A stretch of 61,248 bases of DNA, the filler included. It is 5 parts of 5 records of this genome, joined end to end, with 100 filler letters (N's around TTAATTAATTAA, not from the genome) between each part and the next. Parts side by side here need not be neighbours in the genome. Positions count along the whole stretch, not along the records: positions 53,642 to 61,248 come from SRR31156797_14638; 4 more parts are not named here. The stretch is one strand, 5' to 3'. Of this stretch, positions 5,793-61,248 are shown piece by piece. Under the pieces are notes generated by a model. It worked only from the letters and a program-made list of their open reading frames with translations. It was not told where the DNA came from and ran no database searches. Made by a program: the position numbers and the translations under genes. Every line of letters starts with the position of its first letter. The first letter of the stretch is position 1.

Positions 5793-5809
5793 TTGGCACG
5801 CTCTCTGCT
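5793..5809 (+). promoter_or_regulatory. Sigma54 -24/-12 promoter
   Basis: TTGGCACGCTCTCTGCT (GG-N10-GC). Confidence 0.85.
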
Positions 5810-5863
5810 TTAGGGGAATCCAATCTGCAAGATTAAAATTTGAGGAGAAGAGGAGAATACACC

Positions 5864-7075: not shown

Positions 7076-7099
7076 TTCAGAACAACTTTTAAGGAGTAT

Positions 7100-8266
7100 A
7101 TGATGGAAATTCTCGATTTTGGTTTTACTACTGCTGAATTTGAAACAAGAACAGCACGCATGCAGAAACTCATGCGCGAAAAAGAACTCGATGCTGTTTT
7201 CCTGACCACCGAACCGAACATCCGCTACTATACCGGATATTACACCCAGTTCTGGGAAAGCCCGACTCGTCCTTGGTTTCTGGTCATTCCCCTTGAAGGT
7301 AAACCTATTGCCGTCATTCCCGGCATCGGCGCCAGCGGCATGCGGGCAACATGGATTGAAGACATCCGCACCTGGTCATCTCCCAACCCCGAAGATGACG
7401 GAATTACCCTTGTATCCGAAGTTCTCAATTCCCTGCCCAGCCGATTCGGCCGTATTGGTGCGACCCTCGGTTTGCAGTCCTACCTGCGCATGCCCACCGC
7501 CGATTACCTGACCATCACTGAAAAAGTCAGTAAGGAATTCGTCGATATAGCTGAAGATATGCACTACCTGCGCAGTGTTAAGTCCCCCGCGGAAGTTGAA
7601 AAAATCCGTCGCGCCTGCGCCATCACCAACCACGGCTTTGACATGATCCCCTCTCACGCCAGAGTAGGCCAGACCGAACGTGAAATCTGCACCCAGATGC
7701 GCATCAATATGCTTCAGGAAGGCGCTGAATTCGTTAAATACCTCATCTCCGGTTCCGGTCCCGACGGTTACGATTCCATCATCATGGGCCCCACTTCCCG
7801 CATAATTGAAGAAGGCGACGTGCTGATCATCGATGTAGGAGCAGTATACGACGGTTACTTCTCCGACTTTGACCGCAACTTTGCATTCGGCCGTTGCAGC
7901 GATGAAACCAAGCGCGCTTACGACTGCGTCTACGAAGCAACCGACGCAGGTTTCGCAGCAGCACGCCCCGGCGCAACCACCACTGATGTCTATAACGCCA
8001 TGTGGAAAATCATGGAAGCGGGAGGAGCACTGGGCAACGAAGTAGGCCGCCTCGGACACGGTCTGGGAACCCAGCTCACCGAATGGCCGTCCAACACCGC
8101 CACCGACAACACCGTTCTCGAACCGGGTATGGTTATCACCCTTGAACCCGGCATGACCTATGCCAAGGGCAAGGACATGGTTCACGAAGAAAATATCGTG
8201 ATCACCGAAGACGGCGCAGAATGGCTGACCCGCCGCGCCAGCGAACACATTATCGTCATTGATTAG
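7100..8266 (+). CDS. M24-family (creatinase-N + pita-bread) metallohydrolase
   Basis: Metal ligands present: DVGAVYDGYFSD, GHGLG, LEPG, HEEN. Confidence 0.88.
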   Translation: MMEILDFGFTTAEFETRTARMQKLMREKELDAVFLTTEPNIRYYTGYYTQFWESPTRPWFLVIPLEGKPIAVIPGIGASGMRATWIEDIRTWSSPNPEDDGITLVSEVLNSLPSRFGRIGATLGLQSYLRMPTADYLTITEKVSKEFVDIAEDMHYLRSVKSPAEVEKIRRACAITNHGFDMIPSHARVGQTEREICTQMRINMLQEGAEFVKYLISGSGPDGYDSIIMGPTSRIIEEGDVLIIDVGAVYDGYFSDFDRNFAFGRCSDETKRAYDCVYEATDAGFAAARPGATTTDVYNAMWKIMEAGGALGNEVGRLGHGLGTQLTEWPSNTATDNTVLEPGMVITLEPGMTYAKGKDMVHEENIVITEDGAEWLTRRASEHIIVID

Positions 8267-8289
8267 ATCAGAATAAGAGGGAGATTATT

Positions 8290-9852: not shown

Positions 9853-9961
9853 CAACGTAGGACCTCCACTCCTAGGACATTACCTACAGAGACCCGTTGG
9901 CGCGGACAGCACCACATCCCCCGCGCCAACGGGCAAAATTTCAAAGCAAGAAGAAAGACAT

Positions 9962-11161
9962 ATGTTTGATAAAATTGTTGCACGCACCGGACATTACGAA
10001 CAGGAAATATACGATTTCGCCAGCGAACTGATCCGCATTGAAAGCCTCTCCGGTCAGGAAGGCGGGGTAGCAAAAGCTGTTTCCGCAAAAATGGAACAAC
10101 TCGGATTTGATAAGGTCGAAACAGACGAAATGGGCAATGTCTGCGGTTCAGTGGGGTACGGCCCCGCCCTTGTCTGTGTTGACGGACACATGGATGTTGT
10201 CGGTACCGGCGAAGAAAGCCTCTGGTCCCGTCCCTCCCTTTCCGGAGATCAGGATGATGACAAGATTTACGGACGCGGCGCAACAGACATGAAATCCGCC
10301 ATCGCTTCCATGGTTTACGCAGGCAGAGTCCTCAAGGATCTTGAACTGACCGACGGCCTTACTTACATGGTCTGCGCCAGCGTGCAGGAAGAGCCATGCG
10401 AAGGGCTGGCTTGGGAATATATGATTGAAGAACGCGGCATGCGCCCTGATTTCGTCATCCTTGCCGAACCCAGCGATGACAAGATTTCACTGGCCCAGAA
10501 AGGGCGTATGGAACTGAAAGTTTCTGTTTCCGGCAAAACCGCCCACGCTTCCACCCCGCATATGGGCGACAACGCCATCTACAAAATGGCCCGCATCATT
10601 GCCGATCTGGAATCACTGAATTCAAACATGGAAATTGAAGACAGTGAGCTTGGAAAAGGCTGCCTTGTTGTATCCGAAGTAAATTCCCATGCCCCTTCCA
10701 GATGCTCAGTTGCAGACTACTGTGAAATATCCATCGACAGACGACTCACTTGGGGAGAATCCGCAGAGTATGCCCTAGAACAGATCAAAAATTTGCCCAG
10801 CGTTGCCGATTCAGGGGCCCAAGTTGAGTGCTACCTTTTTGAAGAGCCTTCCTACACCGGAAAAACCTGTTCCAAAGAATGCATCTTCCCGGCTTGGAAA
10901 CTTGAAAAAGAGCATGTTGTGACCAATGCAACCAAAGAAGCATTCAAGGGTCTGTTCAGCAAAGAAGCAACCCTGACCACCTGGCCCTTTTCCACCAACG
11001 GCGTAGCCATCATGGGCAAAAATGATATTCCGGTTATCGGTTACGGTCCCGGCACCCTTGATGCCTGCCATGTTCCCGATGAGTACGTAAGCAAAGCACA
11101 GGTTCTTGATGCGGCTATGATGTACGCAGCAATTCCTGTAATATATACCAACAACAAATAG
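9962..11161 (+). CDS. ygeY: YgeY-like M20/ArgE-family hydrolase
   Basis: DGHMDVVG, GRGATDMK, VQEEPCEG, DRRLTWGE, WPFSTNGVAIMG, HVPDE. Confidence 0.82.
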   Translation: MFDKIVARTGHYEQEIYDFASELIRIESLSGQEGGVAKAVSAKMEQLGFDKVETDEMGNVCGSVGYGPALVCVDGHMDVVGTGEESLWSRPSLSGDQDDDKIYGRGATDMKSAIASMVYAGRVLKDLELTDGLTYMVCASVQEEPCEGLAWEYMIEERGMRPDFVILAEPSDDKISLAQKGRMELKVSVSGKTAHASTPHMGDNAIYKMARIIADLESLNSNMEIEDSELGKGCLVVSEVNSHAPSRCSVADYCEISIDRRLTWGESAEYALEQIKNLPSVADSGAQVECYLFEEPSYTGKTCSKECIFPAWKLEKEHVVTNATKEAFKGLFSKEATLTTWPFSTNGVAIMGKNDIPVIGYGPGTLDACHVPDEYVSKAQVLDAAMMYAAIPVIYTNNK

Positions 11162-11180
11162 TCCTAAGGAGATTAATACA

Positions 11181-11561
11181 ATGAAAACACAGATCAATAC
11201 CACCAATGCTCCCGGAGCAGTAGGCCCTTACTCTCAGGCAATCAAAGCCGGCAACACCCTTTATGTTTCCGGTCAGCTGCCCATTAACCCCGAAACCGGC
11301 AAAATGTGCGAAGGTTCCATTGAAGAGTGTACTCGTCAGGCTCTTGAGAACCTCAAAGCAATCGTAACCGAAGCAGGCGGTTCTCTGGATAACGTTGTAA
11401 AAACAACTGTATTCATGGCCGACCTCGGTGACTTTGTTGCAGCAAACGGCGTTTATGCTGAATACTTTGCTAAGCCTTTCCCCGCACGTAGCGCATTTCA
11501 GGTTGCCGCTCTGCCCCTTGGCGGCCGTATTGAAATCGAAGCAATAGTAGTTCTGGATTAA
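11181..11561 (+). CDS. ridA: RidA-family enamine/imine deaminase
   Basis: APGAVGPYSQAI, SGQLP, FPARSAFQVAALP, IEIEA. Confidence 0.93.
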   Translation: MKTQINTTNAPGAVGPYSQAIKAGNTLYVSGQLPINPETGKMCEGSIEECTRQALENLKAIVTEAGGSLDNVVKTTVFMADLGDFVAANGVYAEYFAKPFPARSAFQVAALPLGGRIEIEAIVVLD

Positions 11562-11631: not shown

Positions 11632-13302
11632 CTATCCCCCGGCGGACTTCAATCCCATCTTACGCATCTTGCTCCTGAGCGTACTTGGGTTGAGCTCAAG
11701 CAGTTCCGCTGCACCGCCGGGACCGTTAATTCTTCCCCCTGCCTTTGCAAGGGCAGCAAGGATGGCCTCTTTTATTGTTTGTTCAAGAGGTTTAACCTCA
11801 GTCTGGTCAGACTGATCCACTTGGGGAAGCTGAATAGGCCCGGAACCGAGATTCAACTTTGCAAGATGCTTTTCAAGCATGATCTCTACCCGGGCATCGA
11901 TGGTCTTCTCAAAATAGCTCTGGCTTTCTTCAGGTGAAATATACCATCCCTCATCTTGTGGGAGCAGCTTATCCAGCAGTAAAGGACCGTGCGGATAGAG
12001 GGTCAGACCGCGCTTGACCAGGTTTTCAAGCTCGCGGACATTACCGGGCCATGAATATTGCAACAAACGGTCAACTGTCTGCTCAGGCAACTGCGGAAGA
12101 CTTTTTATACCCAACTCATCACAGCCGCGCTTCATAAATAAATAGATCAATTCCGGGATATCCTGCGTACGTTCGCGCAAAGGAGGAACTTGGACGGGAA
12201 AAACATAAAGACGGTAATAAAGGTCCTCACGGAAGGTGCCTTCCTGCAGCATGAGTTCAAGGTTACGGTTGGTGGCTGCAATAACCCGCACATCCACCTC
12301 AATTGACTTCGTGCTACCGATCCGTTCCACCACATTGTTCTGCAAAACACGCAGCAAACGGACCTGTGCCTGCAAGGGTAATTCGCCAATTTCATCAAGG
12401 AACAGAGTTCCCCCGTTGGCCTGTTCAAAGCGGCCCGGACGGGAGGTAGTTGCCCCGGTAAAGGCCCCCTTTTCATAGCCGAAGAGTTCACTATCGACCA
12501 ATGAATCAGGGATAGCCCCGCAGTTTACCTTCACAAAAGGCTTGTCCTTGCGTGGAGAAATAGCATGGATGGCATCGGCAATAAGTTCTTTACCTACCCC
12601 GGTCTCGCCCAGAATCAGAGCCGGAACCTCCCTGTTCTCAAGCTGGTGGACCACTTCCATAGTTGATTTCAAGCCACCCTGATCCCCCACAATCCGCCGT
12701 TCACGCAAAGTCTCCAGATCCTTTTCCAACCCGTCACGCTCTACGCGCAGCCTTTCCTGAAACTCCATGGTCCGCTGATATTGCAGCAGATTGGACATGG
12801 TCAGTGCAAATGGAGTGACCAGCAAAGCAAATTTACGCTCATGCTCCTGGGTAAAACAATTCGGATGCGTACCCATAAGGCAAAGATGTCCCAGAACTTC
12901 CTTTTCCGAACGCAAAACGCAAACCATATAAGCCCGTTCCTTCAGCGGGACCAGCTCTGACAGACTTTCACTATGCAGAGCTGAAACCGGAGAATCCATG
13001 TTTCGCGGTACCTTGATGACTCCGCTGACCCCCTGATTATGAAGAAAAAGGGAATTGGCCGCTTCCTCGGACAGAGGGGCCACGATTTCCACAAAATCAA
13101 ACCGCCCTTCCTGCACCAGAAACAGAAGCTTTAAGGCTTTCAAATCCGGGGAATACTGATGCAGGGAAATGGCATCAATGGGAAAATGTTCGGCAAGAAA
13201 CTCAAAGGTCTCAATGAGCGATTTCTGCATGTCCAGACTTCCGGTCAGCCGGGCCATAGCTTCGCTTAAAAATTTAAGATTACTCTCTCGGGAATGAGGC
13301 AT
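11632..13302 (-). CDS. Sigma54-dependent activator with N-terminal GAF-like domain (FhlA-like)
   Basis: GETGVGKE, GAFTGA, WPGNVRELEN, GAAELLELNPSTLRSKM; AAGGAG RBS favours ATG 13302. Confidence 0.9.
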   Translation of the reverse strand: MPHSRESNLKFLSEAMARLTGSLDMQKSLIETFEFLAEHFPIDAISLHQYSPDLKALKLLFLVQEGRFDFVEIVAPLSEEAANSLFLHNQGVSGVIKVPRNMDSPVSALHSESLSELVPLKERAYMVCVLRSEKEVLGHLCLMGTHPNCFTQEHERKFALLVTPFALTMSNLLQYQRTMEFQERLRVERDGLEKDLETLRERRIVGDQGGLKSTMEVVHQLENREVPALILGETGVGKELIADAIHAISPRKDKPFVKVNCGAIPDSLVDSELFGYEKGAFTGATTSRPGRFEQANGGTLFLDEIGELPLQAQVRLLRVLQNNVVERIGSTKSIEVDVRVIAATNRNLELMLQEGTFREDLYYRLYVFPVQVPPLRERTQDIPELIYLFMKRGCDELGIKSLPQLPEQTVDRLLQYSWPGNVRELENLVKRGLTLYPHGPLLLDKLLPQDEGWYISPEESQSYFEKTIDARVEIMLEKHLAKLNLGSGPIQLPQVDQSDQTEVKPLEQTIKEAILAALAKAGGRINGPGGAAELLELNPSTLRSKMRKMGLKSAGG

Positions 13303-13455
13303 AGTCAACTCCTTGTAAACTTAAACCTGCCACAGACTATTTAATAAAACAATAGATCTTTAAACTTAACAACTATCGTTTTATTTAGCAGCCAGAAAAG
13401 CCCTTAAAACGACCTCTCACAAATACAACACGCTGATTTTAAAGAACTTAGCACA

Positions 13456-13472
13456 TTGGCACATTTCTTGGT
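13456..13472 (+). promoter_or_regulatory. Probable sigma54 promoter of the rdh operon (variant -12)
   Basis: TTGGCACATTTCTTGG: consensus -24 element, -12 GG instead of GC. Confidence 0.6.
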
Positions 13473-13496
13473 TTATGAGCAGCAAGGAGAGAAGCC

Positions 13497-14399
13497 ATGA
13501 ACATGTCAATGCAGCAAATCAATGAAGAACGGCTCAGGAAGCGTATTTGCGAATACAAGGATGAACGCGAATACCGTTCCCTGACAGAGTACCTTATCGG
13601 GGAACTCGCCTCCGGGCATGTTCCCATGCAGCTTCAGGCCAAGGCTTACAACGAACTTGGACTGGCCCACCTGCAGCTGGATGAGCCGCTTGAAGCGGAG
13701 AAATCTTTTTTATCGGCACTTGAGCGTGATCCACAAGCGCTTAACCCAAAATTCAATCTGGCTAACCTTGCCATGTACGCCCAGAGATATGAACAGGCCG
13801 AGGAACTATTTCATGAAATTCTTGAAATGGAACCCAGCCATATCGGGGCGAGATTTCATGCCGGGCTCTGCCTAGCCATGAGCGATCAGTCGGACCAAGC
13901 CCTACCCTATTTTGAATCCAGTGCCGCGGCCGCACCGCAGGCCATGGGCCCAAATTTCTGGGCAGCTGAAACCCTTGTAGCCAAAAAACGTTTCAAGGAA
14001 GCCCTGCCCTATTTCCGCAAAGCAACTGAAATCACCCCCGACCACCGTGAATCACAACGCGGAGTTGCAATCTGCCTGCTTGAAACCGGACAGAACGATG
14101 AATGCGTTGAGCAATGTGACACGCTCATCCTCTCCGGCCAAGGAGCGGAATACCTTGCATGGCAGATAAAGGGCGATGCCCTCATCGAAATGGGTGAAAT
14201 CGAAGCCGCTGCCCTCAGTCATCTGGAGCTGGCAGACATGGATTTCGATGCCCGTGATTTCCTGATCATGCGGGCCAAGGAACTCCGTAAGGAGTACCCG
14301 CACTATGTATCCCGCTACGCAGCGGTGATCATCGACGTTATCCCCGAACTTGAGCCTGCCTTTAACGGAATCTGCAATGATTCCATGGCGGAGCAGTAA
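13497..14399 (+). CDS. Tetratricopeptide-repeat protein
   Basis: Repeated AYNELGLAH..., KFNLANLA..., RFHAGLCLA... TPR-like helices. Confidence 0.85.
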   Translation: MNMSMQQINEERLRKRICEYKDEREYRSLTEYLIGELASGHVPMQLQAKAYNELGLAHLQLDEPLEAEKSFLSALERDPQALNPKFNLANLAMYAQRYEQAEELFHEILEMEPSHIGARFHAGLCLAMSDQSDQALPYFESSAAAAPQAMGPNFWAAETLVAKKRFKEALPYFRKATEITPDHRESQRGVAICLLETGQNDECVEQCDTLILSGQGAEYLAWQIKGDALIEMGEIEAAALSHLELADMDFDARDFLIMRAKELRKEYPHYVSRYAAVIIDVIPELEPAFNGICNDSMAEQ

Positions 14400-14419
14400 A
14401 CATATTCCCGGAGGAACTC

Positions 14420-16087
14420 ATGTCTGAAGAACAAAATGCGTTGGATATAATCAACGATCCCAAGAACCGTATGTCTTCCCCGGACAGTTCTGCCACTGAG
14501 CAGCCTGAACCGGAAAACATGGATAAAGAGCAAAAGCCTGCAAAGAAAGGTTTCAGCCGCCGTAATTTCCTGAAATTCGGAGGGGTAGCAGCCGCTGCAG
14601 CCACTGTGGCCGGAGCCGGAGGAGCCGGGTTTGCCATTGGCCGTTCCGATCAGGCTTACACCGGATACGGCCAGACCTATCAGGGCGGGGACCAATTCTT
14701 TAACCGTGAGCCGTTCCGCTGCGATGTCCCGGCCATGATGACCCCGGTGGGGGAAGTCGAACGCCCCGACTGGACAGATTACCTTTTCCTGCGCCTTGCC
14801 GCGCTGGTAAAGATCATCAAATCCGGCGAGTGGAACCCGGAAATGGGAGTGGACAAACTTCCCGGTCCCGTAGGCGACCACTACCGAGCCCGTCCCGGTG
14901 AACTTGAAATCATGCTCAATTCCCTGCAACGCAACATCAAGCGCAGTGAGGCATGGAAGAACGGGAAAGACAAGAAATACGCCCTCGCAGGAGCATACAA
15001 CATGGCCCTGCGCAAGGGCGGTATGGAATTCTCCGACCACACCAACCGTCTCCCCGCCGACCCGCAGGATGAATACAATAAAACCGGAAAACCCGTACCT
15101 CCTGAAGACTGGGATTTCCGGGGTATCTGGCGCAAAGAGCCCATGGAATTCAAATCCCCGGCCCATGCATCAAAGCTAATTAAGCGCATGGCCCACCAGT
15201 TCGGCATGTCCTTGGTGGGTATCACCAAGTTCGATCCCCGTTTCATGTTCAAGAACGTCATGCGCGGTATGCCTGACAAGGGCCAGAAATGGGGAGACAA
15301 AGTTCCCGAGCACTGGAAATCCATCATCGTCTTCGGCGTACCCATGAACTGGGATGGGACATATTCCGCCATCGGCTACTCTACTTCCTTTGATGCCTAT
15401 TTCCGCTCCCGCTGTGCTGCCAGCCTCATGGAACAATTCATCAAGGAACTGGGCTATCCGGCCCGCGCCCAATTTCCGGGCCACAACTATGAAATCATGA
15501 TGAGCCCATATGTACAGCTTGCGGGACTCGGCCAGTACAGCCGTGCAGGAGTGGTCATGGTCCCCGAACTGGGCGCAAACTTCCGCCCCGCAGCAGTAGT
15601 TACCAATATCGAGTTTGAATACGACAAGCCCATCGACGTAAAAATGGCTGATTTCTGCCTGAAGTGTAAGATCTGCGCCGACAACTGCCCGTCAGGTGCC
15701 ATTCCGCATGACGACCGCCCCAAAACCGTTGTGCGCGGGTTCAAACGCTGGAAGCTGGACGAAGAGAAATGCTACTCGCAATGGGCCGGAGGCCCCACTC
15801 AGGACGGTCTCGGTTGCAGGGTCTGCATCGGTGTATGCCCCTATTCCCGCAAGAACACATGGATTCACACCATATCCCGAGAGATTGAGCCGCGCGACCC
15901 AACAGGCATGTTTGCCACCGGACTACTGGCCATGCAGAAGAACTTTTTCAAGTTCAACGAGGCCGAGGATTACCGTTCAGAGTGGGATGGCGGCAAGGAA
16001 GCAAACTACCACAATCCGCCGTGGTGGCTGCGTGCCGAGAACTTCCTCAATGTCGAAAAAGACTGGGAATACCACGGCATGGAGTAG
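14420..16087 (+). CDS. rdhA: Respiratory-type reductive dehalogenase catalytic subunit
   Basis: Tat motif SRRNFLK; AGLGQYSRAG...PELGANFRP; CLKCKICADNCP and C-x14-CRVCIGVCP Fe-S motifs. Confidence 0.92.
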   Translation: MSEEQNALDIINDPKNRMSSPDSSATEQPEPENMDKEQKPAKKGFSRRNFLKFGGVAAAAATVAGAGGAGFAIGRSDQAYTGYGQTYQGGDQFFNREPFRCDVPAMMTPVGEVERPDWTDYLFLRLAALVKIIKSGEWNPEMGVDKLPGPVGDHYRARPGELEIMLNSLQRNIKRSEAWKNGKDKKYALAGAYNMALRKGGMEFSDHTNRLPADPQDEYNKTGKPVPPEDWDFRGIWRKEPMEFKSPAHASKLIKRMAHQFGMSLVGITKFDPRFMFKNVMRGMPDKGQKWGDKVPEHWKSIIVFGVPMNWDGTYSAIGYSTSFDAYFRSRCAASLMEQFIKELGYPARAQFPGHNYEIMMSPYVQLAGLGQYSRAGVVMVPELGANFRPAAVVTNIEFEYDKPIDVKMADFCLKCKICADNCPSGAIPHDDRPKTVVRGFKRWKLDEEKCYSQWAGGPTQDGLGCRVCIGVCPYSRKNTWIHTISREIEPRDPTGMFATGLLAMQKNFFKFNEAEDYRSEWDGGKEANYHNPPWWLRAENFLNVEKDWEYHGME

Positions 16088-25872: not shown

Positions 25873-25972
25873 NNNNNNNNNNNNNNNNNNNNNNNNNNNN
25901 NNNNNNNNNNNNNNNNTTAATTAATTAANNNNNNNNNNNNNNNNNNNNNNNNNNNNNNNNNNNNNNNNNNNN
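25873..25972. other. Artificial contig spacer
   Basis: N44-TTAATTAATTAA-N44 (stops in all frames). Confidence 0.99.
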
Positions 25973-39548: not shown

Positions 39549-39648
39549 NNNNNNNNNNNNNNNNNNNNNNNNNNNNNNNNNNNNNNNNNNNNTTAATTAA
39601 TTAANNNNNNNNNNNNNNNNNNNNNNNNNNNNNNNNNNNNNNNNNNNN
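39549..39648. other. Artificial contig spacer
   Basis: N44-TTAATTAATTAA-N44. Confidence 0.99.
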
Positions 39649-47084: not shown

Positions 47085-47184
47085 NNNNNNNNNNNNNNNN
47101 NNNNNNNNNNNNNNNNNNNNNNNNNNNNTTAATTAATTAANNNNNNNNNNNNNNNNNNNNNNNNNNNNNNNNNNNNNNNNNNNN
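47085..47184. other. Artificial contig spacer
   Basis: N44-TTAATTAATTAA-N44. Confidence 0.99.
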
Positions 47185-53541: not shown

Positions 53542-53641
53542 NNNNNNNNNNNNNNNNNNNNNNNNNNNNNNNNNNNNNNNNNNNNTTAATTAATTAANNN
53601 NNNNNNNNNNNNNNNNNNNNNNNNNNNNNNNNNNNNNNNNN
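53542..53641. other. Artificial contig spacer
   Basis: N44-TTAATTAATTAA-N44. Confidence 0.99.
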
Positions 53642-53913
53642 CTGTTATAGACCAGCTATTTTCAACAAAAACACTTGAATCTTCTGCAATATTTTCCATG
53701 TACACCATATTATATTATTATTTATAAAGTTATGGCGCTGTTGTGTAGAATAATTATTTTTTAAAAATCCTGATGAAAAGATAATCTTTCCATCAAAACA
53801 GTATTCCTTGTTATTTTACCCCATAAAGACAAGTTTCTCCTGCAGAACCTGACGATATCCCCCTAGGAAACGCCAGAAAACATAACAAAATATTGTCGTA
53901 ATATCAAAAGAAC

Positions 53914-54478
53914 ATGTTAAAAAATGAGCCTTCCTGGTCAATGGTATGGGCATCCTGGGACCTTACGAGATAGATCTACTAAGAAATAGTATCCCTCAGA
54001 TGTACCTTAAAACTATCTTTGATGTGTGTTTCTGGCCAAGGATGAGATACGTAGAAGTCCAGAGATTGCATGATCATCTTGAATGGTGGTGGAAGATCCG
54101 TAGGACAATACATCTTCCAGAGGAAGCCCAGAAGAAAGCAAAACGAAAACAGCTTGAAAGATATGCTCATCCCATTCCTGGACAGCTGGAGAATGTCCTG
54201 AATTATTTCTTCAAGAATAAAAAGCCACCTTCAAGATCTGCCTTGAACGAGAATCTTTTGAGGTGGGGTGAAAAATCCAGCCTAGACTCATTAGAGTTAA
54301 GCAATAAAACAACCAGGAAAAGATGGAGTCCTGCATGGTTACTGCAGATATCCCATTAAATATAATTTGCCTTCGTCAGGGACATGATAGTTTAACGTCT
54401 ATGTTGCATTATCAGAGCTGGCCCTTCACAGATGGTGAGAAGGAGGAGATTCAGAGAATGTTGGCAGGATGGATATAA
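53914..54478 (+). pseudogene. Frameshifted small tyrosine recombinase/integrase
   Basis: MRYVEV (catalytic R region) and KTTRK in one frame; LRQGHDSLTSMLHY in another frame after about 54320; a second probable shift near 53930. Confidence 0.72.
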
Positions 54479-54547
54479 ACTTAGCATTTGTTTGCATTTA
54501 ATTGCAATAGAATTTTTCCGCTCGCTTTTCTCCATGCAATATATTTC

Positions 54548-57500
54548 CTAGTTTTGATAATCCTTTTCTACCTCTGATTCCAATTTTTGTTCCTTTAGCT
54601 TAACACCAAATTTTACGGCCAATCGCCTAAGAATATCTTTTCGATCCATCTGTTCCTCAGCAAAGTAAAGTTTATTAAGGTCATCAGAAATCACACTTGC
54701 CACATATGTGTCAGGAGTGAAGTCGTTGTTTGTATCTTTAATTAGTATTGAATCCAACAACATCAAGGTATCAAAATCACCATCATCTTTTACTGCGTCT
54801 TCAACTAATGCCTGTATCTTATCCCTTCCATCATTGAACAATTTTTGATAATCAAAAAAATTAATATTTTGATCATAGAACTCATCAGATCCATTAAAAT
54901 TTTTGTCTAATTGTAACCTAGTAATCCTCTTTTTGTATTGAGTTTGAAAATTTTCTTCCATCAGGTTTACAAGACTTGTCCAGTTATCTTTCTGCCATTC
55001 ACTTGCAATTTCCCCGCTGTCATACCATTTTTTTGCAAATTCAAATATTGAATCTGAATATGTATTTTTAAGTCCAAAAGCTGATTTCTTATTTTGAACC
55101 TCTAAAGCAAGGTTTACAAGGTATGTATCCTGATCAAAATAATTACTCCATTCATCCTCTTCTAAGCCAATAATAGCTGAGGATATTTTGTCGATTATTT
55201 CTTCGTCATCAGTGTTTTTTACTATTAAGAAGAACTCAATTGAGAAATTAGATATATCAGGATTTTGAGTCTGCATGATTTCATTTTTGAGATCAGAATG
55301 TTCAAGTAACTGATTTACTACCTTACCCAACATAAGATCATTTACATCATCTACTAACTCTACTACATACCCAAGCTTGTTGAGTGTGTCAGAACAATTA
55401 AAAAATGCAGAATTTTGATCTTCAATAGCAAGATTAATAATAGCTACAACGAGTTGATGATTCTTATTCTCTGCAAGGTCCCATAATAAATTAACAAAAT
55501 CAAACTCCTTGAGAGACGAATACATCTCTTTTGCATTTTCATCACTCTTCTTTAGCCAAACATCACGCATCTCTTGAAGACCATTATTCGAGTTTGCAAC
55601 AGGAGTTAACGAGATATCATGCAGTCCATTTTTAAAATAATATGCCATTAGTAAAGCAGAATAGATTTTCGCTTTGTTATTTATTTGATGGTGTATAAAG
55701 TTATGGAATTGTCCACTCTCAAGGATTTGTTTTATATCTGGTTTGCAAAACTCATGTGAAGTTAACCAAAGTAGAATATCAAGTACTTCTATAGAAGGTT
55801 GATTTTCGTTAATAAGTGTACCATTGTTTTGGAAAATATGGTCTCTACACGCAGATGGAAGGTCTTCCCAGTCAACAATTCCTGCATTGGTGGAATAAAT
55901 TAAAAGTTCCTTTGTACCAGGTACTATAGGAGAAGATGCCCCTATATTTAGAGCTATTTCAGTTACTATATTTTGAGGAGGTAAAATCCACCTATATGCA
56001 GGTATTTTATGGGAATCAACTTCTTGCGCCCATTTAACCCAGTTTTCAGAGATAACGTTTTGGAACGTACGTGAGCTAAGTTTATCGTCCGGATTGTTTA
56101 TACTATTATCAAAATATTCAGCAATAGTTTCCAGAGCTAACACATCTTCCTCATAACTAATTGCATCCTTTTCTCCCATAAATATCTCTATATTTGTCAA
56201 AATATGATTCCAAATATGCTTCAGTAATGAGACATCATTGATCATTTTTATAATAGGTATATAACTCTCAGTTCTTCTTCCTGTTGCAACTAAAGGCGAA
56301 CCTGATCTAAAAAATTCCTCTATTTTCACTAAAAACTTACTACATTTTTCCGGGTTCGTTTCCCATAAACCTTCATATATTGCTTTAGAATAACTAAACA
56401 AAGCATCAGTTACATCGAGATTGTTTATGTGATACTCAAATACCGACCAAAATCCACCTTCATGTTTTTTTGCTAAATTCATCAATTCATTTCCACTTGA
56501 ATTTTGCAAAATATTCTTGATTTCTGGCTCAAGAAGCAACTGCTGTCCTGTTTCAGGTTCAACTCCATAGATTATCCCTGCAAGATGTTTGCTGCATTCT
56601 GATGGTAAAAATATTTTGTCTTTCAAAATAGGCAAACTGCCATCCAATAGCCTTGTTTTTATTGAGTGAGTAGAAGCCCCTCTCAAATATTTATGGATTG
56701 AATAATAAGCAATGCTATCAATTGGAATTTGTTTGCTATGATGCATACGCAATATACCAGTCTGATTTATGTAATTTTTTATTTCACGAGGAGTTGGTGC
56801 ATCACCAATATCTTTACGTGTTAATTTTAGAATTCTCAAAACACAATCCTTATCTTTAACATCCCATCCATCAAGCGCTTTATCCAACATTTCTTTAGTG
56901 AACTGTTCCCACCCCGTAAGAACTGGTTCTGGGACATCAATACGTATTTGAAAACATTTGTCAAAAAATGATTTTGCACATGAATTCAAGCCATTTCCAT
57001 AAAAATTAGTACTGCCATTAATGTCATTCGTATTACTATTGTCGTCATTAGTATTATTATTATCATTCGTAATACTATTGCAATCATTATTAGTAGTACC
57101 TATATGGTTAGATTTTTCGTCAAATATTCCTTCTTTATTCCACAACTTAGAAAGACCATTCATATCATAAGGAACAATTATCCAAATATTTTTATACCAT
57201 TGATTATCTGAATTTGATGGGTTCCTTTGCTGCAAGAATGTTTGAAGAGTAGACCATATTTTGAGAGAATCATTTGCATCAATTCTGTCAAGATTGTCAA
57301 TAACAATAATTAATTTGTCAGAAGTATTGACTTCAAAAACTTCAATCATTATTTGTCTAAAGAATTTCTCGAATTCAATTGAAGAACGTTCTTCTTCATC
57401 CGAGATTTCTTGAGTAACGGTACGATTATTATTACTTTCCAAAAATACCCAATTATTCCCATCAAATATTTTTTTTAAACCAACTTTCTTAAATTGAAGC

Positions 57501-58075
57501 AAATACCCAATATTGAAAATAATAACCCATACTGGCATAAGCGAAAAAAAAACTCCACATAAAAACATCCATTGTGGATTTCCACCTAACTTAAAAGATA
57601 ATTGTAAAATGTCTACCCCTGAGACAAGACTTGCACCTAAAGGCACAAGTAGAAACGAAGCCGCCAATAATTTGCCAAGGTTTGTTCCATGTTGTTCAGT
57701 ACGAGTAGTAGTCGTACGCATATGATTTGAAATTTTATCACTGAGTTCTTTAAAATTATCAGAACCCGTATCAAGTTGAGATAGTAAAGATTCCAGAAAT
57801 ATTTGACGGAGGTGGTCGCCTTCATGTGCCCATGCATCAAAATAAAAATAACAGAATTGATTTTGTTCGATTTTCTTTTTTAGGAGTGATATAACCGTTG
57901 ATTTCCCTGAGCCCCACGAGCCTTCTAATCCAATGGTGAAACCGTTTTCATTTGAACAAATCAATTTGTACAACGTTTCAGCCACTTTTTCATGAGTCTG
58001 TTCCTCAAAATAATCAGTATCTGCAATTTCATCTGTAAGAAGAGTAAATTCATACTTTTTTTCGTCTTCGTTCAT
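54548..58075 (-). CDS. KAP-family P-loop NTPase with long C-terminal extension
   Basis: IGLEGSWGSGKST, FDAWAHEGD, two TM helices inside the NTPase domain, IDNLDR, FFDKCF, PTPREIK. Confidence 0.88.
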   Translation of the reverse strand: MNEDEKKYEFTLLTDEIADTDYFEEQTHEKVAETLYKLICSNENGFTIGLEGSWGSGKSTVISLLKKKIEQNQFCYFYFDAWAHEGDHLRQIFLESLLSQLDTGSDNFKELSDKISNHMRTTTTRTEQHGTNLGKLLAASFLLVPLGASLVSGVDILQLSFKLGGNPQWMFLCGVFFSLMPVWVIIFNIGYLLQFKKVGLKKIFDGNNWVFLESNNNRTVTQEISDEEERSSIEFEKFFRQIMIEVFEVNTSDKLIIVIDNLDRIDANDSLKIWSTLQTFLQQRNPSNSDNQWYKNIWIIVPYDMNGLSKLWNKEGIFDEKSNHIGTTNNDCNSITNDNNNTNDDNSNTNDINGSTNFYGNGLNSCAKSFFDKCFQIRIDVPEPVLTGWEQFTKEMLDKALDGWDVKDKDCVLRILKLTRKDIGDAPTPREIKNYINQTGILRMHHSKQIPIDSIAYYSIHKYLRGASTHSIKTRLLDGSLPILKDKIFLPSECSKHLAGIIYGVEPETGQQLLLEPEIKNILQNSSGNELMNLAKKHEGGFWSVFEYHINNLDVTDALFSYSKAIYEGLWETNPEKCSKFLVKIEEFFRSGSPLVATGRRTESYIPIIKMINDVSLLKHIWNHILTNIEIFMGEKDAISYEEDVLALETIAEYFDNSINNPDDKLSSRTFQNVISENWVKWAQEVDSHKIPAYRWILPPQNIVTEIALNIGASSPIVPGTKELLIYSTNAGIVDWEDLPSACRDHIFQNNGTLINENQPSIEVLDILLWLTSHEFCKPDIKQILESGQFHNFIHHQINNKAKIYSALLMAYYFKNGLHDISLTPVANSNNGLQEMRDVWLKKSDENAKEMYSSLKEFDFVNLLWDLAENKNHQLVVAIINLAIEDQNSAFFNCSDTLNKLGYVVELVDDVNDLMLGKVVNQLLEHSDLKNEIMQTQNPDISNFSIEFFLIVKNTDDEEIIDKISSAIIGLEEDEWSNYFDQDTYLVNLALEVQNKKSAFGLKNTYSDSIFEFAKKWYDSGEIASEWQKDNWTSLVNLMEENFQTQYKKRITRLQLDKNFNGSDEFYDQNINFFDYQKLFNDGRDKIQALVEDAVKDDGDFDTLMLLDSILIKDTNNDFTPDTYVASVISDDLNKLYFAEEQMDRKDILRRLAVKFGVKLKEQKLESEVEKDYQN
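56990..57091 (-). repeat. In-frame degenerate 21/18-nt tandem repeat encoding an Asn-rich insert
   Basis: NNDCNSI-TNDNNN-TNDDNSN-TNDINGS-TNFYGNG. Confidence 0.7.
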
Positions 58076-58664
58076 GATAAAGCCCCTAAAAAAGCTACAA
58101 TATTTTGATTTTGATCTCAATATGGGCATCCACAATTCATCCCTCAGCATTAACTCATTTTAGAAGGGAAATCATTTTTAAGTATTGCCTATGCATGTTT
58201 TCATTCTTAAACTCTATATTTCCCCGAATACAACCTAGTACTAACTCTAAGCCCATTAATTATTTCTCCAAAATTAGTAAAGGGATTGTAACTTAATAAG
58301 TTTTGTTAATAAACCACATGATTACACAAAGATGTGTAGACAAAGTAAGACGCTGAGCTGCAAAAAATTAAAGTTCTGTGGCTGCACATATTTGTGTAGC
58401 TACTCTGTGTAGATATGTGGCGTGGATGTTCCCAAGGGTGCGGGCACAACTCCAGCTCAGCTCTTAACTCATTTTGGATTTCTTCCAAGCCTGTCAGCCC
58501 ATTCCCTGCAGCACTGGACACCCCCTGCAACTCAGCCACTTATCCTTGAGAACTTCAATTCTATTGGAGACAACTGCAGTTTGAAGACTGTAACATTTAG
58601 CATATAATAAATTAGTAGAATGGGTGTTGGAAGTCCCTAATGTGCAATTTGCAGGTCATTTATG

Positions 58665-59237
58665 CTACTTGGATGCGTTAATAAAGGCTATGTCCTGAGA
58701 TACAACTCTACTTAGGAACCTATCTTTTGGATACTCTTTTTTTAACTCTTTCAAGGAGTTTATCATTTCATCAGCATTTGCCCCTCTTTCAAATGCCTTG
58801 ATAAAAATATCTTGTCTACTGCTCTTTTTCATCTTAGGTTCCCATTCATAATAATCAAGCGAGACCCATGGATATGAGTCTATTCTCTTAAAATACTCAT
58901 CTTCCATTTTATTAAGTATATGAGATGTTACAGCCTGCTTTAATCCTAAAGGTCCACCTTCATGAATTGATCTAAAAAAAGAACCACTTTGTGTGAAACA
59001 CTGCATAGCATTTTCTTCTTCATCTTCTGCTAAGAAATCAGACTCAATCCAAAAGGCTTCTGCTATGCCAAAAAAATCAATACTTTGAAGAACATCATCA
59101 GATAATTGCTCTTCTGGATTTAGCTTTTTGTAGGTCCCATCAACCCATATTGCAACTTTGAAGCCAGAGTTTGCTTCATCTTCACATTCACAAGCAGTCT
59201 GAATAGTATCCCCTACATTATCAAGATCGAATTTCAT
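58665..59237 (-). CDS. Hypothetical protein
   Basis: 190-aa ORF with GAAGGT RBS-like sequence; no recognised motif. Confidence 0.65.
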   Translation of the reverse strand: MKFDLDNVGDTIQTACECEDEANSGFKVAIWVDGTYKKLNPEEQLSDDVLQSIDFFGIAEAFWIESDFLAEDEEENAMQCFTQSGSFFRSIHEGGPLGLKQAVTSHILNKMEDEYFKRIDSYPWVSLDYYEWEPKMKKSSRQDIFIKAFERGANADEMINSLKELKKEYPKDRFLSRVVSQDIAFINASK

Positions 59238-59414
59238 ATTAAGTACCTTCTCCGAATGTAATTATTTTATGTTCAACAGTATTGTTTTTTCTTTTGTTTA
59301 TACCTGCTTATTGCACGGAAAAGAAGGTTAGGATCTCGTGAATATAGAAAGATGCTAGAATGATATTACTAAGTTAATTTTTTGTGCAGAGAAAACCATT
59401 ATTTAACTGATATT

Positions 59415-60155
59415 ATGGATGATAACACTGATATCCCAAATGTTTTGTCAGTAAGAGATCTACGAGCTAAACATATAGGCAAGAAAGTTTCAATAAAAGG
59501 AATTGTTCATGCTTTGGACATGATTAAACCAAAGCTTTTGAAAGCAGCTTTCGTATGTGAGTATTGCGAAACAGAAGTTGCTACTGATTCTTTGGAAGAT
59601 CCTGCTGTCTGTGAGAATGAAACGTGTGGTAGATCAGATGGATTGGTCTTTTTGGAAGATAAGGCGGTCTACACTGATTACTTACAAATGACACTTGCAT
59701 ACATTTTTGAGCTTGGAGATAGTTCAAAAAAGTATTCTATTCAAGTAGATCTTGAAGGTGATCTTGTAAATGGGATTAAGGAAAAAGATGTTGTGATTGT
59801 GAAAGGCATACTCCAGACCACAGCTGGCAAACATTGCAAAATTCCAAAAAATATTGATTATACATTAACTGCAAAATCAGTTGAAGTGCTTGATAAAAGC
59901 GAGCCTTCAAAAATGCATACTGCAAACAAAGATGCTGGAGAAAGTAGTCAGAGAAAAGACAGCAAGAAAATCAAAGAAGTTATAAAATCTGTAGGTGAAA
60001 AGCACCCAGGTGGGAAAGCTCCTCTGAATGAAGTTTATGTAGAAGCAAAAATACAGCACCAATTTGACACTAAACGTACTGGAGATCTGATAGAAAGAAT
60101 GAGACGTTGTGGTGACCTTATCAAACCCGACAAAGAACATGTGAAAGTGATTTAA
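59415..60155 (+). CDS. MCM-derived protein: N-terminal OB/Zn-finger region joined to C-terminal winged helix, no AAA+ domain
   Basis: VRDLRAKHIGKKVSIKGIV, KPKLLKAAFVCEYC..CENETC, LEGDLV..DVVIVKGIL; tail SQR..IKEVIK..GKAPLNEVY..GDLIKPD. Confidence 0.78.
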   Translation: MDDNTDIPNVLSVRDLRAKHIGKKVSIKGIVHALDMIKPKLLKAAFVCEYCETEVATDSLEDPAVCENETCGRSDGLVFLEDKAVYTDYLQMTLAYIFELGDSSKKYSIQVDLEGDLVNGIKEKDVVIVKGILQTTAGKHCKIPKNIDYTLTAKSVEVLDKSEPSKMHTANKDAGESSQRKDSKKIKEVIKSVGEKHPGGKAPLNEVYVEAKIQHQFDTKRTGDLIERMRRCGDLIKPDKEHVKVI

Positions 60156-60604
60156 CCTTTTAATTTTTAAAATTCTCACCGAAAGGTGGTTTTACAAAGA
60201 TGGCATATGATTGTATTTTTGGCTCTTTTTTAAATTCAACAGAAGGGCATTAAAAAGCAACAGACGTTCCTGTTTCTGAAAACTGATGTGGCAAACCCGA
60301 ACCAACACCATGGAAGTAAGTAGAACAGTAGGAGGATTGGCCAATTTCAAATGAGGAACATTTTTATTGGCCAATACGTGCGAGTCAAACGAGGGCAATC
60401 ATGAACCTGATACTCAGGAAAGTATACAGAAGTTTTCGGAGAACTCTGAAGGTTGTAGTTCCCGATCAACCCGCAAATACAAAATAGACTTTTTAGTATA
60501 TCAATGTTACGAATTTTTAAGAAAATAACACAGATTGCTTTTTTCCAATGTTGGTGTAACACCAAAATGACATGCTACCCGAATATACAACAAACCTAAA
60601 GTCC

Positions 60605-60653
60605 ACTCAAAAAAAGCAAAAAAGAAATCAAAGCAGCCCTTCAAAAGGGCTGC
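60605..60653 (-). terminator. Probable terminator of the chemoreceptor gene
   Basis: GCAGCCCTT-N3-AAGGGCTGC followed on the minus strand by T tracts. Confidence 0.6.
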
Positions 60654-60683
60654 AACCCTAATAAAATTACCAAAACCTACAGA

Positions 60684-61247
60684 TCAGACCAAAGCATCCT
60701 CTGGAAGCTCTGGATCCATTTCTTCAACATCTGAGGAGAACAAACCTTCCACCTCGTCATCAAATGAATCTTCAGAACCAACTGAAGCACCTGCCACAGA
60801 ATCCAGCTTGAACTTTGAAACCACTAACTGCATGTTGGCTGCCACATCTGCAAGCTCCTGAGCGGACCTCGAGAGTTCCTGCATAGAATTAGTTTGCTCC
60901 TGAACAGAGGCAGAAGCCTGCTGAGCCCCGGCTGCGGACTCTTCTGATATCGCAGACACTTCCTCCACAGAGGAGGTTACCTCTTCTATTGAAGCGGATT
61001 GCTCTTCTGCGGCCGCAGCTATCTCCTGTACCATCTTCACGATGGTATTTCCGGCCGCTACTACATCATCAACTGCAAGGGCCGACTTCTCAAGGGAAAC
61101 TGCACCAGCATCAACTTCATCTGCACCCTTCCCCATAGCGGAAACCGCTTCATGAGTTCCATTCTGTATCTGGCCAATAAGATCTGCGATTTGCTGGGCA
61201 GCATTACCTGATTCTTCAGCAAGCTTCCTAACCTCATCAGCTACAAC
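60684..61247 (-). CDS. Methyl-accepting chemotaxis protein, C-terminal part (5' truncated)
   Basis: VVADEVRKLAEES hairpin region; IAAAAEEQSASIEEV methylation helices. Confidence 0.92.
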   Translation of the reverse strand, partial: VVADEVRKLAEESGNAAQQIADLIGQIQNGTHEAVSAMGKGADEVDAGAVSLEKSALAVDDVVAAGNTIVKMVQEIAAAAEEQSASIEEVTSSVEEVSAISEESAAGAQQASASVQEQTNSMQELSRSAQELADVAANMQLVVSKFKLDSVAGASVGSEDSFDDEVEGLFSSDVEEMDPELPEDALV

Positions 61248-61248
61248 A

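Follow-up and report, generated by a model that had tools for sequence, protein, structure and literature searches.

The closest described relatives of the protein studied here are the archaeal replicative MCMs, represented by the 696-residue Methanolobus MCM (P0005-P0017), by 1LTL from M. thermautotrophicus and by 4POF/4POG from P. furiosus. These share with it the same OB/zinc fold, the four cysteine ligands, the interface aromatic and the beta-turn, and the C-terminal winged helix (WH) of our protein is 67-72% identical to the WHs of the Methanolobus replicative MCMs. However, our protein lacks subdomain A, the AAA+ core and lid, and the Walker and arginine-finger motifs, and its OB is highly diverged (~35% identity) and forms a clade of its own. 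Catalytically inactive relatives of MCM exist: the eukaryotic MCM-binding protein (MCMBP) and Methanopyrus kandleri MCM2 are likewise non-catalytic MCM derivatives under selection, presumed to act as partners or regulators of the helicase. Most inactive relatives keep a degenerate AAA+ body, whereas the protein considered here, which we call a mini MCM, is made of the two terminal modules only. The nearest experimental counterparts are the PfMCM-N and MthMCM-N constructs, and the papers on motor-less N-tiers (PMC3970758; PMC4627082) state that such a tier can form hexameric rings and bind DNA. Our model of the mini protein reproduces the inter-subunit contacts of these constructs, yet they are laboratory truncations with subdomain A and without the WH, whereas the mini protein is the product of a natural gene and is the opposite on both counts.

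The mini gene lies in a window (the whole stretch of DNA analysed, 61,248 nucleotides) that is a chain of unlinked contigs, so that only positions 53642-61248 are physically linked to it. On this piece we distinguish the following features.

54548..58150, minus strand: KAP-family P-loop NTPase neighbour, 1200 aa (Pfam, PADLOC)
58665..59237, minus strand: acidic ORF of 190 aa, divergent, of no family, neighbour of the mini gene
59415..60155, plus strand: coding sequence of the motor-less MCM, protein P0001, 246 aa and stop (orthologue start and Logan contig agree)
59433..59897, plus strand: MCM OB/zinc subdomains B and C, aa 7-161 (Pfam, BLASTP, AF2 model with Foldseek)
59556..59627, plus strand: zinc motif Cys48-x2-Cys51 ... 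Cys66-x4-Cys71 (family alignment)
59898..59945, plus strand: linker, aa 162-177 (16 codons between the OB and WH matches)
59946..60152, plus strand: MCM-type C-terminal WH, aa 178-246 (BLASTP)
60156..60185, plus strand: T-rich stretch directly 3' of the stop, possible archaeal oligo-T terminator (sequence reading)

The original prediction described an uninterrupted reading frame of 246 residues and named a misassembled junction as one way in which it could be wrong. Translation confirms the first point: the ORF is intact, running from an ATG at 59415 to a stop at 60153-60155, and its start methionine is common to the orthologues P0002 and P0003. As to the second, 58600-60700 lies within a single Logan contig from run X1 (33,938 nt, depth 42) that is identical to it over this span, with no gaps or joints; X1 is possibly the source sample, so the identical contig counts as a second assembly and not as independent data. 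Run X3 gave no cover of the locus, and X2 contributed only a 241-nt piece from the intergenic stretch 60389-60629.

Now we consider how the protein is built. Subdomains B and C of P0001 are 31-35% identical to their counterpart in full-length Methanolobus MCM, residues 89-249, and Pfam MCM_OB matches residues 13-135 over nearly its whole length (model positions 2-124 of 126, E 2.1e-17). The four proposed zinc ligands, Cys48, 51, 66 and 71, are invariant in 16/16 aligned family members and in the 4/4 full-length MCMs added to the alignment, so the MCM N-domain motifs and cysteines that had been read from the sequence hold up. Measured against a complete MCM the match is partial: the NCBIfam MCM model NF040949 is matched only at positions 93-258 of 682, with 87 bits against a cut-off of 940. 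The N-terminal helical subdomain had been thought absent, and it is: subdomain A (MCM_N, PF14551) finds no match in P0001, and only six residues stand ahead of the OB alignment, which begins at MCM residue 89.

Downstream of the OB, a 16-residue linker takes the place of the AAA+ core and lid, which in MCM span ~379 residues. This linker is predicted to be disordered (pLDDT <50 at residues 161-176 of the AF2 model) and is variable among orthologues, with in-frame indels. The MCM-like tail expected after it is found, since residues 178-246 align with MCM residues 629-696 at 67-68% identity (E 2e-25 and 3e-21, BLASTP against full-length Methanolobus MCMs). It is this comparison that decides the identity of the WH, because the Pfam MCM_WH_arc match in P0001 is sub-threshold (E 0.048, 14.1 bits, below the 26.1 cut-off); the same model scores above its cut-off in the relative P0020. 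The motor itself is missing, as first proposed. Pfam finds neither PF00493 nor PF17855 in P0001, PF00493 is absent also from 9 further relatives scanned (6 of them minis), and a tblastn search with two full-length MCMs against the whole window finds no AAA+ remnant elsewhere below E 0.4. Judged from its sequence, P0001 has no ATPase, and lacking the AAA+ core and lid and the Walker and arginine-finger motifs it cannot work as a helicase; its role is probably to mimic or regulate the true helicase, not to unwind DNA.

A search for the same architecture in Methanosarcinales had been suggested as a check, and the architecture is indeed found there, in Methanolobus and Methanococcoides. We define the mini family by alignment A2, that is, proteins of ~224-265 aa with an OB/zinc module, no subdomain A, a variable linker and a C-terminal WH. 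Two orthologues, 73% and 68% identical to P0001, have the OB+WH layout, and so do at least 13 other clusters at 50% identity: among the 150 representatives listed, at least 13, of 224-265 aa, match over their full length, and another is extended at its N-terminus. Together with the 2 orthologues, 13 representatives align with P0001 from end to end, giving a family alignment of 16 sequences. The source organism is named for WP_407282154.1 (Methanolobus sp. WCC1), WP_309308919.1 (M. mangrovi) and WP_250869331.1 (Methanococcoides seepicolus); all the family's records are unnamed or auto-named, and its proteins are labelled 'hypothetical protein' or, misleadingly, 'DNA helicase'. The top match in the ESM Atlas is an archaeal cluster of 75 members (representative 233 aa, score 0.97), and a profile search with A2 in a word-indexed database returned 5 proteins only.

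Conservation within the family follows the domains. Among the three orthologues, invariant columns make up 98/150 of the OB and 45/69 of the WH, against 3/17 of the linker. The DNA of the WH, compared with that of the WHs of four full-length mcm genes, gives dN 0.20-0.24 and pS 0.60-0.83, with synonymous change near saturation, and dN/dS of 0.10-0.19 against full-length mcm at the 3/4 loci where it can be computed. The WH of P0001 is under purifying selection. The argument that the protein has a retained function and is no decaying singleton is thus borne out by recurrence of the architecture in orthologues and at least 13 clusters and by domain-specific conservation. No description of an OB+WH-only architecture was found in the openly readable literature searched, and a term look-up in PMC3984812, PMC3972481, PMC3307487 and PMC7159879 did not return it. 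Our best explanation takes these proteins for a conserved family of Methanosarcinaceae, hitherto undescribed, whose members derive from MCM but are non-catalytic.

The two modules have strikingly unequal relations to the replicative helicase. Averaged over 11 Methanolobus MCMs (not including that of the window organism itself), the WHs of P0001-P0003 are 68-77% identical and their OBs 32-37%, while the OBs of the Methanolobus MCMs are 82-89% identical among themselves. In the WH, the similarity of the window clade to the Methanolobus MCMs is about the lowest similarity found among those MCM WHs, and the WH of P0003 is closer to an MCM (83.6%) than to that of its own orthologue P0001 (69.6%). 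In an OB tree, all 18 mini proteins, P0001 included, fall on one branch apart from 105 full-length MCMs; the SH-aLRT support of this clade is 96 with 125 rows and 69 with 40 rows, and the single clade could partly reflect long-branch attraction. An AU test rejects one common clade for the WHs of the minis (p 0.0017), and the WH-type grouping is in turn rejected by the OB data (AU p 0.013). An OB that is old and fast-evolving joined to a WH that is host-like makes this a clean case in which to study how a core replication gene and its accessory derivative recombine or co-evolve at the level of domains. It also bears on the clean in-frame loss of the AAA+ domain that had been proposed: no AAA+ sequence is left, but the gene is not a recent deletion of the host mcm, because the OB is only ~35% identical to those of the Methanolobus MCMs and sits in an old, separate clade. 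Mimicry of the host WH is not universal in the family, since in M. mangrovi, the only same-genome pair compared, mini P0028 and the WH of its own MCM P0013 are 29% identical over 42 residues.

As modelled by AF2 (mean pLDDT 78.7), P0001 folds like the MCM N-tier. The top Foldseek matches of the model are MCM N-domains at E ~1e-13, including 1ltl, 4ywm, 5iy0 and 4pof, and a profile of the family finds 8x7t (E 6.7e-34, with a second stretch on the C-terminal WH of that chain), 1ltl (1.9e-33) and 4pof (2.2e-31). PMC4627082 places F179 of PfMCM at the heart of the hexamer interface; its equivalent is aromatic in 10/16 family members and Ile in 3/16. When four copies of residues 1-165 are modelled together, the complex scores 0.50, compared with 0.01 for the best of 3 controls. 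A score of 0.50 is reached by 21/30 proteins solved as same-chain pairs and by 0/23 solved as single chains, a calibration made with two copies whereas the mini model has four. Separate runs agree in at least 81% of contacts, with partner pLDDT of at least 75. Two contacts known from PfMCM-N (PMC4627082), the P130-F240 beta-bridge and that of F179, recur in the four-copy model as its lowest-error contacts, in which P39 pairs with I147 and Y86 meets the adjacent copy. Interface residues and four-copy model together point to an MCM N-tier-like ring, and the complex score may reflect memory of solved MCM N-tier rings. The equivalents of R124, which binds single-stranded DNA in PfMCM, and of R186 are both non-basic in P0001, and the pI is 5.4 for the OB module and 9.7 for the WH. 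At the R124 position we find Ala in P0001, Asp in P0002 and P0003 and Lys in 6/16 members, which leaves DNA binding in the window clade uncertain.

These properties suggest how such a protein might work. Copies of P0001 would self-assemble head-to-tail through the canonical MCM N-tier interface, as modelling and residue mapping indicate, and the resulting ring would display several MCM-type WHs and no motor. With several WHs on a ring that has no motor, it would be expected to engage the usual partner of the helicase WH. In Sulfolobus, the only genus from which the contact is known, this partner is origin-bound Orc1-1: according to PMC12141716, ORB-bound Orc1-1 interacts with the MCM C-terminal WH. 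A helicase mimic of this kind would modulate or block helicase recruitment. Our preferred reading, tentative and still somewhat short of an even chance, is thus a non-catalytic MCM mimic that forms a self-assembling ring and binds, through its WH, the protein that the helicase itself would bind there, probably the initiator Orc1/Cdc6. Archaeal MCM recruitment and loading, and the role of the WH tail in them, are known from only a few model organisms, and the mini family offers a natural N-tier-plus-tail protein, a ready-made probe of the contacts of both modules. It may also be an example of replication control or interference through molecular mimicry of the helicase.

The neighbourhood of the gene bears on what the mimicry might be for. 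The KAP NTPase reported nearby is confirmed by Pfam at 54548..58150, and its P-loop region alone resembles the defence-associated models of KAP systems (QatA of Qat, PifA, PDC-S20); at this one locus neither P0001 nor the 190-aa ORF matches any of them. The 190-aa ORF has no Pfam, PADLOC or PHROGs match and none in the Atlas at a score of at least 0.9, and for P0001 no PADLOC model matched and PHROGs gave a generic 'DNA helicase' phrog only. The KAP gene, the 190-aa ORF and the mini gene have a GC content of 33-36%, compared with 50% for the flanking MCP gene, and GC3 is 26% in the mini gene against 39% in Methanolobus-type mcm. We could not uphold the integrase relic (53946-54478), which has no match in Pfam (E up to 10), PHROGs or PADLOC and, read by eye only, loosely resembles a frameshifted tyrosine recombinase; the contig has no tRNA genes, Rfam matches or meaningful or terminal repeats. 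Taken with the patchy occurrence and the fast evolution of the OB, the AT-rich setting beside a KAP NTPase suggests a role that is accessory and tied to conflict, not part of core replication, in a context drawn from one 7.6-kb contig piece. A bolder version, which we regard as doubtful, places the helicase mimic in a genetic conflict: an OB/zinc ring with MCM tails would occupy or hijack Orc1/Cdc6-dependent loading, its tail re-copied from the host mcm by recombination in some lineages, and would either block invaders or divert host machinery to a mobile element.

How does this compare with other explanations of the same data? The gene might be the accessory of an integrated mobile element, whose WH and ring or DNA-binding module would bring the initiator or helicase of the host to the element's origin, making it a take-over adaptor and not an inhibitor. 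The AT-rich setting fits, as does a patchy and rare occurrence in which most 90% clusters hold 1-2 sequences; MCM genes are present in archaeal plasmids and viruses, and the variant P0024 may carry an extra N-terminal HARE-HTH (E 0.0014, below cut-off). Yet no integrase, tRNA or terminal repeat is supported on the contig, two members sit on chromosome-sized contigs (2.6 and 3.2 Mb), and the mini protein did not turn up among the mobile elements searched. Narrow peptide patterns, with which blanks are weak evidence, found in IMG/VR no mini protein and one viral 699-aa MCM only, in genome contigs no mini relative, and in metagenomes no mini protein and four C-terminal WH matches to mcm genes; of these, L005 is a complete mcm of 696 aa, and L004 is the C-terminal part of an mcm cut by the contig end, which lacks the OB region. 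In phage and plasmid records tblastn found no mini and only partial OB matches below 30% identity, and the matches examined are long ORFs (675 aa in a Halorubrum virus, 690 and 701 aa in plasmid/virus frames). We consider this explanation unlikely. Somewhat more unlikely is a poison or decoy subunit, whose OB/zinc module would enter the MCM rings of the host or of mobile elements to give mixed hexamers that cannot unwind DNA. It would account for the host-like WH, for the canonical N-tier interface residues that are kept and for the predicted head-to-tail interface. The OB, however, is where it meets difficulty: fit to a conserved partner surface should keep this module closer to the Methanolobus OBs than the identities above, and the contrast between a fast-evolving mini OB and a host OB that is well conserved makes it somewhat less likely. 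The protein also lacks subdomain A and the entire AAA+ tier, through which the subunits of full-length MCM make many of their contacts with one another.

A more distant reading, which we hold to be improbable, makes the protein an RPA-like DNA-binding hub that coats or clamps DNA while its WH recruits repair or replication factors, independently of helicase loading. RPA subunits of archaea and eukaryotes likewise have an OB with an embedded zinc ribbon followed by a C-terminal WH, the basic pI of the WH in P0001 and a weak match to a generic OB model (tRNA_anti-codon, E 0.0019, below cut-off) are in keeping with it, and PMC11686378, counted in its favour, has archaeal RPA binding primase and PolD through the WH. 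What tells against it is that both domains are MCM-type by sequence, that Pfam finds no RPA_C in P0001, and that the OB is acidic with neither arginine equivalent basic. Finally, a functionless, decaying remnant of a duplicated mcm could be imagined from the loss of two of the four MCM modules and the sub-threshold Pfam WH score, but we think it highly improbable: proteins that are only 22-40% identical still have the open frame, the architecture and the invariant zinc ligands, and conserved domains flank a variable linker, with the WH under purifying selection.

The mini family is not the only motor-less arrangement of MCM domains. P0034 (307 aa) and P0164 (323 aa), like the mini protein, have an OB joined directly to an MCM WH with no AAA+ domain. 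P0164 keeps subdomain A (MCM_N match), and in P0034 subdomain A is deduced from the residues ahead of the OB, where MCM_N has no match. In the OB tree the two nest separately inside clades of full-length MCMs and not with the mini family, and on this placement they look like separate, possibly more recent losses of the AAA+ domain.

The gene considered here encodes P0001, a 246-aa protein derived from MCM that lacks the motor. It lies on the last of the joined pieces, together with the following features:

54548-58150, minus strand: 1200-aa KAP-family NTPase (Pfam E 2.6e-26)
59415-60155, plus strand: mini-MCM coding sequence, 246 codons and a stop, uninterrupted on translation
60684-61247, minus strand: terminal (3') part of a chemoreceptor (MCP) gene, which the end of the window truncates

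A longer frame with a TTG start at 59382 is also present; we take the ATG at 59415 as the start because the orthologues P0002 and P0003 begin at the same Met. Pfam finds a nearly whole MCM_OB domain at residues 13-135 (E 2.1e-17) and places MCM_WH_arc weakly at 184-244, where the match (E 0.048) falls short of the cut-off. The NCBIfam MCM model is matched only over positions 93-258 of 682, scoring 87 bits where the cut-off is 940. In BLASTP against full-length 696-aa Methanolobus MCMs, residues 7-161 align to MCM 89-249 at 31-35% identity, and residues 178-246 align to the extreme C-terminus, MCM 629-696, at 67-68% identity (E 2e-25 and 3e-21). At the level of sequence, these alignments settle the tail as the MCM C-terminal winged helix (WH). 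When two full-length MCMs are searched by tblastn against the whole window, the OB and WH pieces, 16 codons apart, are the only matches, all others having E of at least 0.4; P0001 therefore has neither subdomain A (MCM 1-88) nor the AAA+ core and lid, about 379 residues, and no remnant of them lies nearby. Cysteines 48, 51, 66 and 71 are unchanged in all 16 aligned family members. The original prediction of an OB/Zn region joined to a WH, with neither motor nor N-terminal helical subdomain, is thus upheld in every point by Pfam, BLASTP, tblastn and the cysteine alignment, and the analysis shows a conserved, non-catalytic protein with an MCM N-tier-like module, an intact zinc site and an MCM-type WH.

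P0001 should not be annotated as a helicase, since it lacks two features that define the MCM helicase, subdomain A and the AAA+ core. It is MCM-derived and belongs to a family of distinct and apparently undescribed architecture; in the main texts of open papers we found no description of an MCM reduced to OB and WH. Laboratory MCM N-domain constructs are close in concept but do not have this layout. MCMBP and M. kandleri MCM2 are catalytically dead MCM relatives, also close in concept, and to our knowledge neither has the OB-plus-WH-only layout.

Nor is P0001 a singleton, as a search for the same architecture makes clear. A word-indexed search returns P0002 (249 aa, 73% identity, Methanolobus sp. 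WCC1, labeled 'hypothetical protein') and P0003 (250 aa, 68% identity). An exhaustive search of 50%-identity representatives gives 497 matches at E <= 1e-3, and among the 150 listed at least 13 representatives of 224-265 aa match P0001 end to end. The top ESM Atlas match (score 0.97) is an archaeal cluster of 75 members, represented by a protein of 233 aa, and 14 matches share its family set. None of nine relatives scanned, six of them mini proteins, has an AAA+ match. Those members with a named source are from Methanolobus sp. WCC1, Methanolobus mangrovi and Methanococcoides seepicolus; another sits on a 3-kb MAG contig labeled Bacteroidota, a probable mis-binning. Database labels are 'hypothetical protein' or the automatic 'DNA helicase' and 'MCM subunit'. 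The family is rare and patchily distributed, as most of its 90% clusters contain one or two sequences. In a further listed representative, P0024 (370 aa, on a 3357-nt Logan contig), the family body is preceded by an N-terminal extension, which matches HARE-HTH below threshold (E 0.0014). Outside the family, two motor-less MCMs, P0034 (307 aa) and P0164 (323 aa), have OB joined straight to WH and keep N-terminal sequence before the OB, which an MCM_N match confirms as subdomain A in P0164.

Do the two retained domains share one history? In an OB tree of 125 rows (18 mini proteins, 105 full-length MCMs, P0034 and P0164; non-mini fragments under 600 aa, five near-identical cluster members and matches under 135 model positions were left out), one branch (SH-aLRT 96) has all 18 mini proteins on one side and the 105 full-length MCMs on the other. 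In a 40-row subset the support for this split drops to 69, so long-branch attraction may partly lie behind the mini OB clade. P0034 and P0164 are nested separately within full-length MCM clades and are therefore independent motor losses; motor loss in MCM has happened more than once. The history of the WH differs. On the WH tree the mini proteins need 7-9 changes, none of 200 bootstrap trees recovers a single mini clade, which the AU test also rejects (p 0.0017), and the WHs of P0001-P0003 and of two further members, P0019 and P0020, fall among those of Methanolobus MCMs. The OB data reject the WH-type grouping (AU p 0.013). The mean identities diverge in the same way:

Mean identity by domain
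P0001-P0003 against 11 Methanolobus MCMs: OB 32-37%, WH 68-77%
The 11 Methanolobus MCMs among themselves: OB 89%, WH 85% (lowest pair 69%)

The WH of P0003 is 83.6% identical to that of an MCM versus 69.6% to that of its orthologue P0001. Two readings fit: in some lineages the mini WH was replaced or homogenized from host mcm by recombination, or the WH evolves slowly and stays near the MCM form while the OB, freed from motor coupling, evolves fast. Universal host tracking is disfavored because the M. mangrovi mini protein, P0028, has only 29% identity over 42 residues to the WH of its own MCM.

The AlphaFold2 model of P0001 (mean pLDDT 78.7, 16-sequence alignment) has a beta-rich OB/zinc module at 10-159, a linker at 161-176 predicted disordered (pLDDT <50), and a three-helix, two-strand WH at 176-245. 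Its top Foldseek matches are the MCM N-terminal domains 1ltl, 4ywm and 5iy0 (E about 1e-13, query TM about 0.45-0.5). The mini-family profile matches 8x7t (E 6.7e-34), with a second stretch on the C-terminal WH of the same chain, and also 1ltl and 4pof. We mapped residues onto PfMCM through the 4pof alignment, in which chain indices run one ahead of residue numbers. Two reports put F179 at the heart of the hexamer interface and K129 and P130 in an inter-subunit contact (PMC3970758, PMC4627082). In P0001, F179 corresponds to Y86, a position that is aromatic in 10 of 16 members, Ile in 3 and Arg/Lys in 3; K129 and P130 correspond to K38 and P39. A four-copy model of residues 1-165 scores 0.50, versus 0.01 for the best of three controls, a mark that 21 of the 30 proteins solved as one-chain pairs attain, and 0 of the 23 solved as single chains. 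It is to be read as likeness to N-tier rings and not as proof of assembly, since such rings have been solved and the calibration is two-copy. Contacts agree between runs at 81% or more, with partner pLDDT of at least 75. Each modeled copy uses two distinct faces, as in a ring (33, 35-41, 44, 79-89 and 13-22, 106-108, 134-149), and the lowest-error contacts, P39-I147 and Y86 with 18, 21 and 135, correspond to the P130-F240 beta-bridge and to the contact made by F179 in the PfMCM-N hexamer. Self-assembly of P0001 via the canonical MCM ring interface is thus supported by modeling and residue mapping.

The window is not a single molecule but a chain of at least five contigs: joints of 44 N's, TTAATTAATTAA and 44 N's lie at 25873-25972, 39549-39648, 47085-47184 and 53542-53641, and only 53642-61248 is physically linked to the mini-MCM gene. 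Piece 1 (1-25872) has 50% GC, the remaining pieces 31-36%, and the genes seen on piece 1 are of bacterial type, among them those for two sigma-54 activators, a LolA-like protein and regulators of the MerR, Fur and MarR kinds. A common organism for piece 1 and the gene is not to be assumed, and the assembly may mix organisms. The region 58600-60700 lies within one 33,938-nt contig (depth 42) of a second assembly from the public run X1, possibly of the same reads and so not independent data, with zero differences, gaps or joints; this continuity across the OB-WH junction speaks against a misjoin.

The KAP NTPase that the original prediction placed nearby is present on the linked piece and resembles the defense-associated models QatA, PifA and PDC-S20 in its P-loop region only; the upstream "integrase relic" finds zero support in Pfam, PHROGs and PADLOC. 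The NTPase has an Asn/Asp-rich low-complexity insert at about residues 350-390. Adjoining the mini-MCM gene in divergent orientation is a 190-aa acidic ORF with no family assignment in Pfam, PADLOC, PHROGs or ESM Atlas. On this piece we found no tRNA genes, Rfam matches or flanking repeats. GC is 33-36% in the KAP gene, the 190-aa ORF and the mini-MCM gene, and GC3 of the last is 26% versus 39% for Methanolobus-type mcm, which suggests an AT-rich accessory island, observed at one locus. At about 60650, where the window enters the MCP gene, GC climbs from about 36-38% to about 50%; this may be an island boundary or merely Ala/Glu/Val-rich chemoreceptor composition. A gene-free 520-nt stretch (60156-60683), with no Rfam match, separates the mini-MCM and MCP genes, and within it 60389-60629 is matched, with 3 differences, by a 241-nt contig from X2, an unrelated run labeled plant metagenome.

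The retained function proposed originally is supported: the open frame, length, zinc ligands and both domains are kept between mini proteins of only 22-40% identity, and conservation among the three close orthologues is concentrated in the domains, the linker being variable:

Invariant columns, P0001-P0003
N-terminal tail: 2 of 9
OB: 98 of 150
Linker: 3 of 17, plus four in-frame indel columns
WH: 45 of 69

Between the WH codons of P0001 and four mcm genes on metagenome contigs, dN is 0.20-0.24 with synonymous sites near saturation (pS 0.60-0.83), and dN/dS, along a path that mixes mini and MCM lineages, is 0.10-0.19 at the three of four loci where dS is computable. This comparison shows that WH likeness to MCM is kept at the protein level and that the WH is no very recent copy of those four genes. 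A decaying remnant is highly improbable.

What, then, might the protein do? One report describes the C-terminal WH of Sulfolobus MCM contacting origin-bound Orc1-1 and thereby orienting loaded hexamers (PMC12141716), and another describes the archaeal WH region modulating ATPase and helicase (PMC4357721). If the mini-protein WH does what the helicase's WH does, partner binding would be its remaining role, there being no motor to regulate, and a motor-less ring with several host-type WHs would compete with, or replace, MCM at recruitment. By this analogy we tentatively favor a helicase mimic at the loading step. The fast evolution of the OB, the rarity of the family, its AT-rich surroundings and the neighboring KAP NTPase tilt this reading, short of proof, toward an accessory or conflict role. 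A poison subunit of mixed rings, as first envisaged, is unlikely; a mobile-element adaptor drawing in host machinery is conceivable, if rather doubtful. For PfMCM, R124 and R186 are described as binding ssDNA (PMC3970758, PMC4627082). The first is Ala in P0001, Asp in P0002 and P0003 and Lys in 6 of 16 members; the second is non-basic in P0001 and Gln in Methanolobus MCMs too, and the family's beta-turn keeps 2-5 basic residues. We regard an RPA-like DNA-binding hub as improbable.

MCM genes also occur on two other records. Plasmid pMETHO01 of Methanomethylovorans hollandica has a full-length one in the region 4602-10155, beside nrdD and overlapping an 'AAA family ATPase' gene that lies upstream. 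A tailed archaeal virus contig in IMG/VR (regions 9215-11314 and 12897-15051) encodes a 699-aa Methanosarcinales-like MCM, and downstream of it is a gene run that by eye resembles 7-deazaguanine synthesis (QueD, QueE, QueC, FolE-like).
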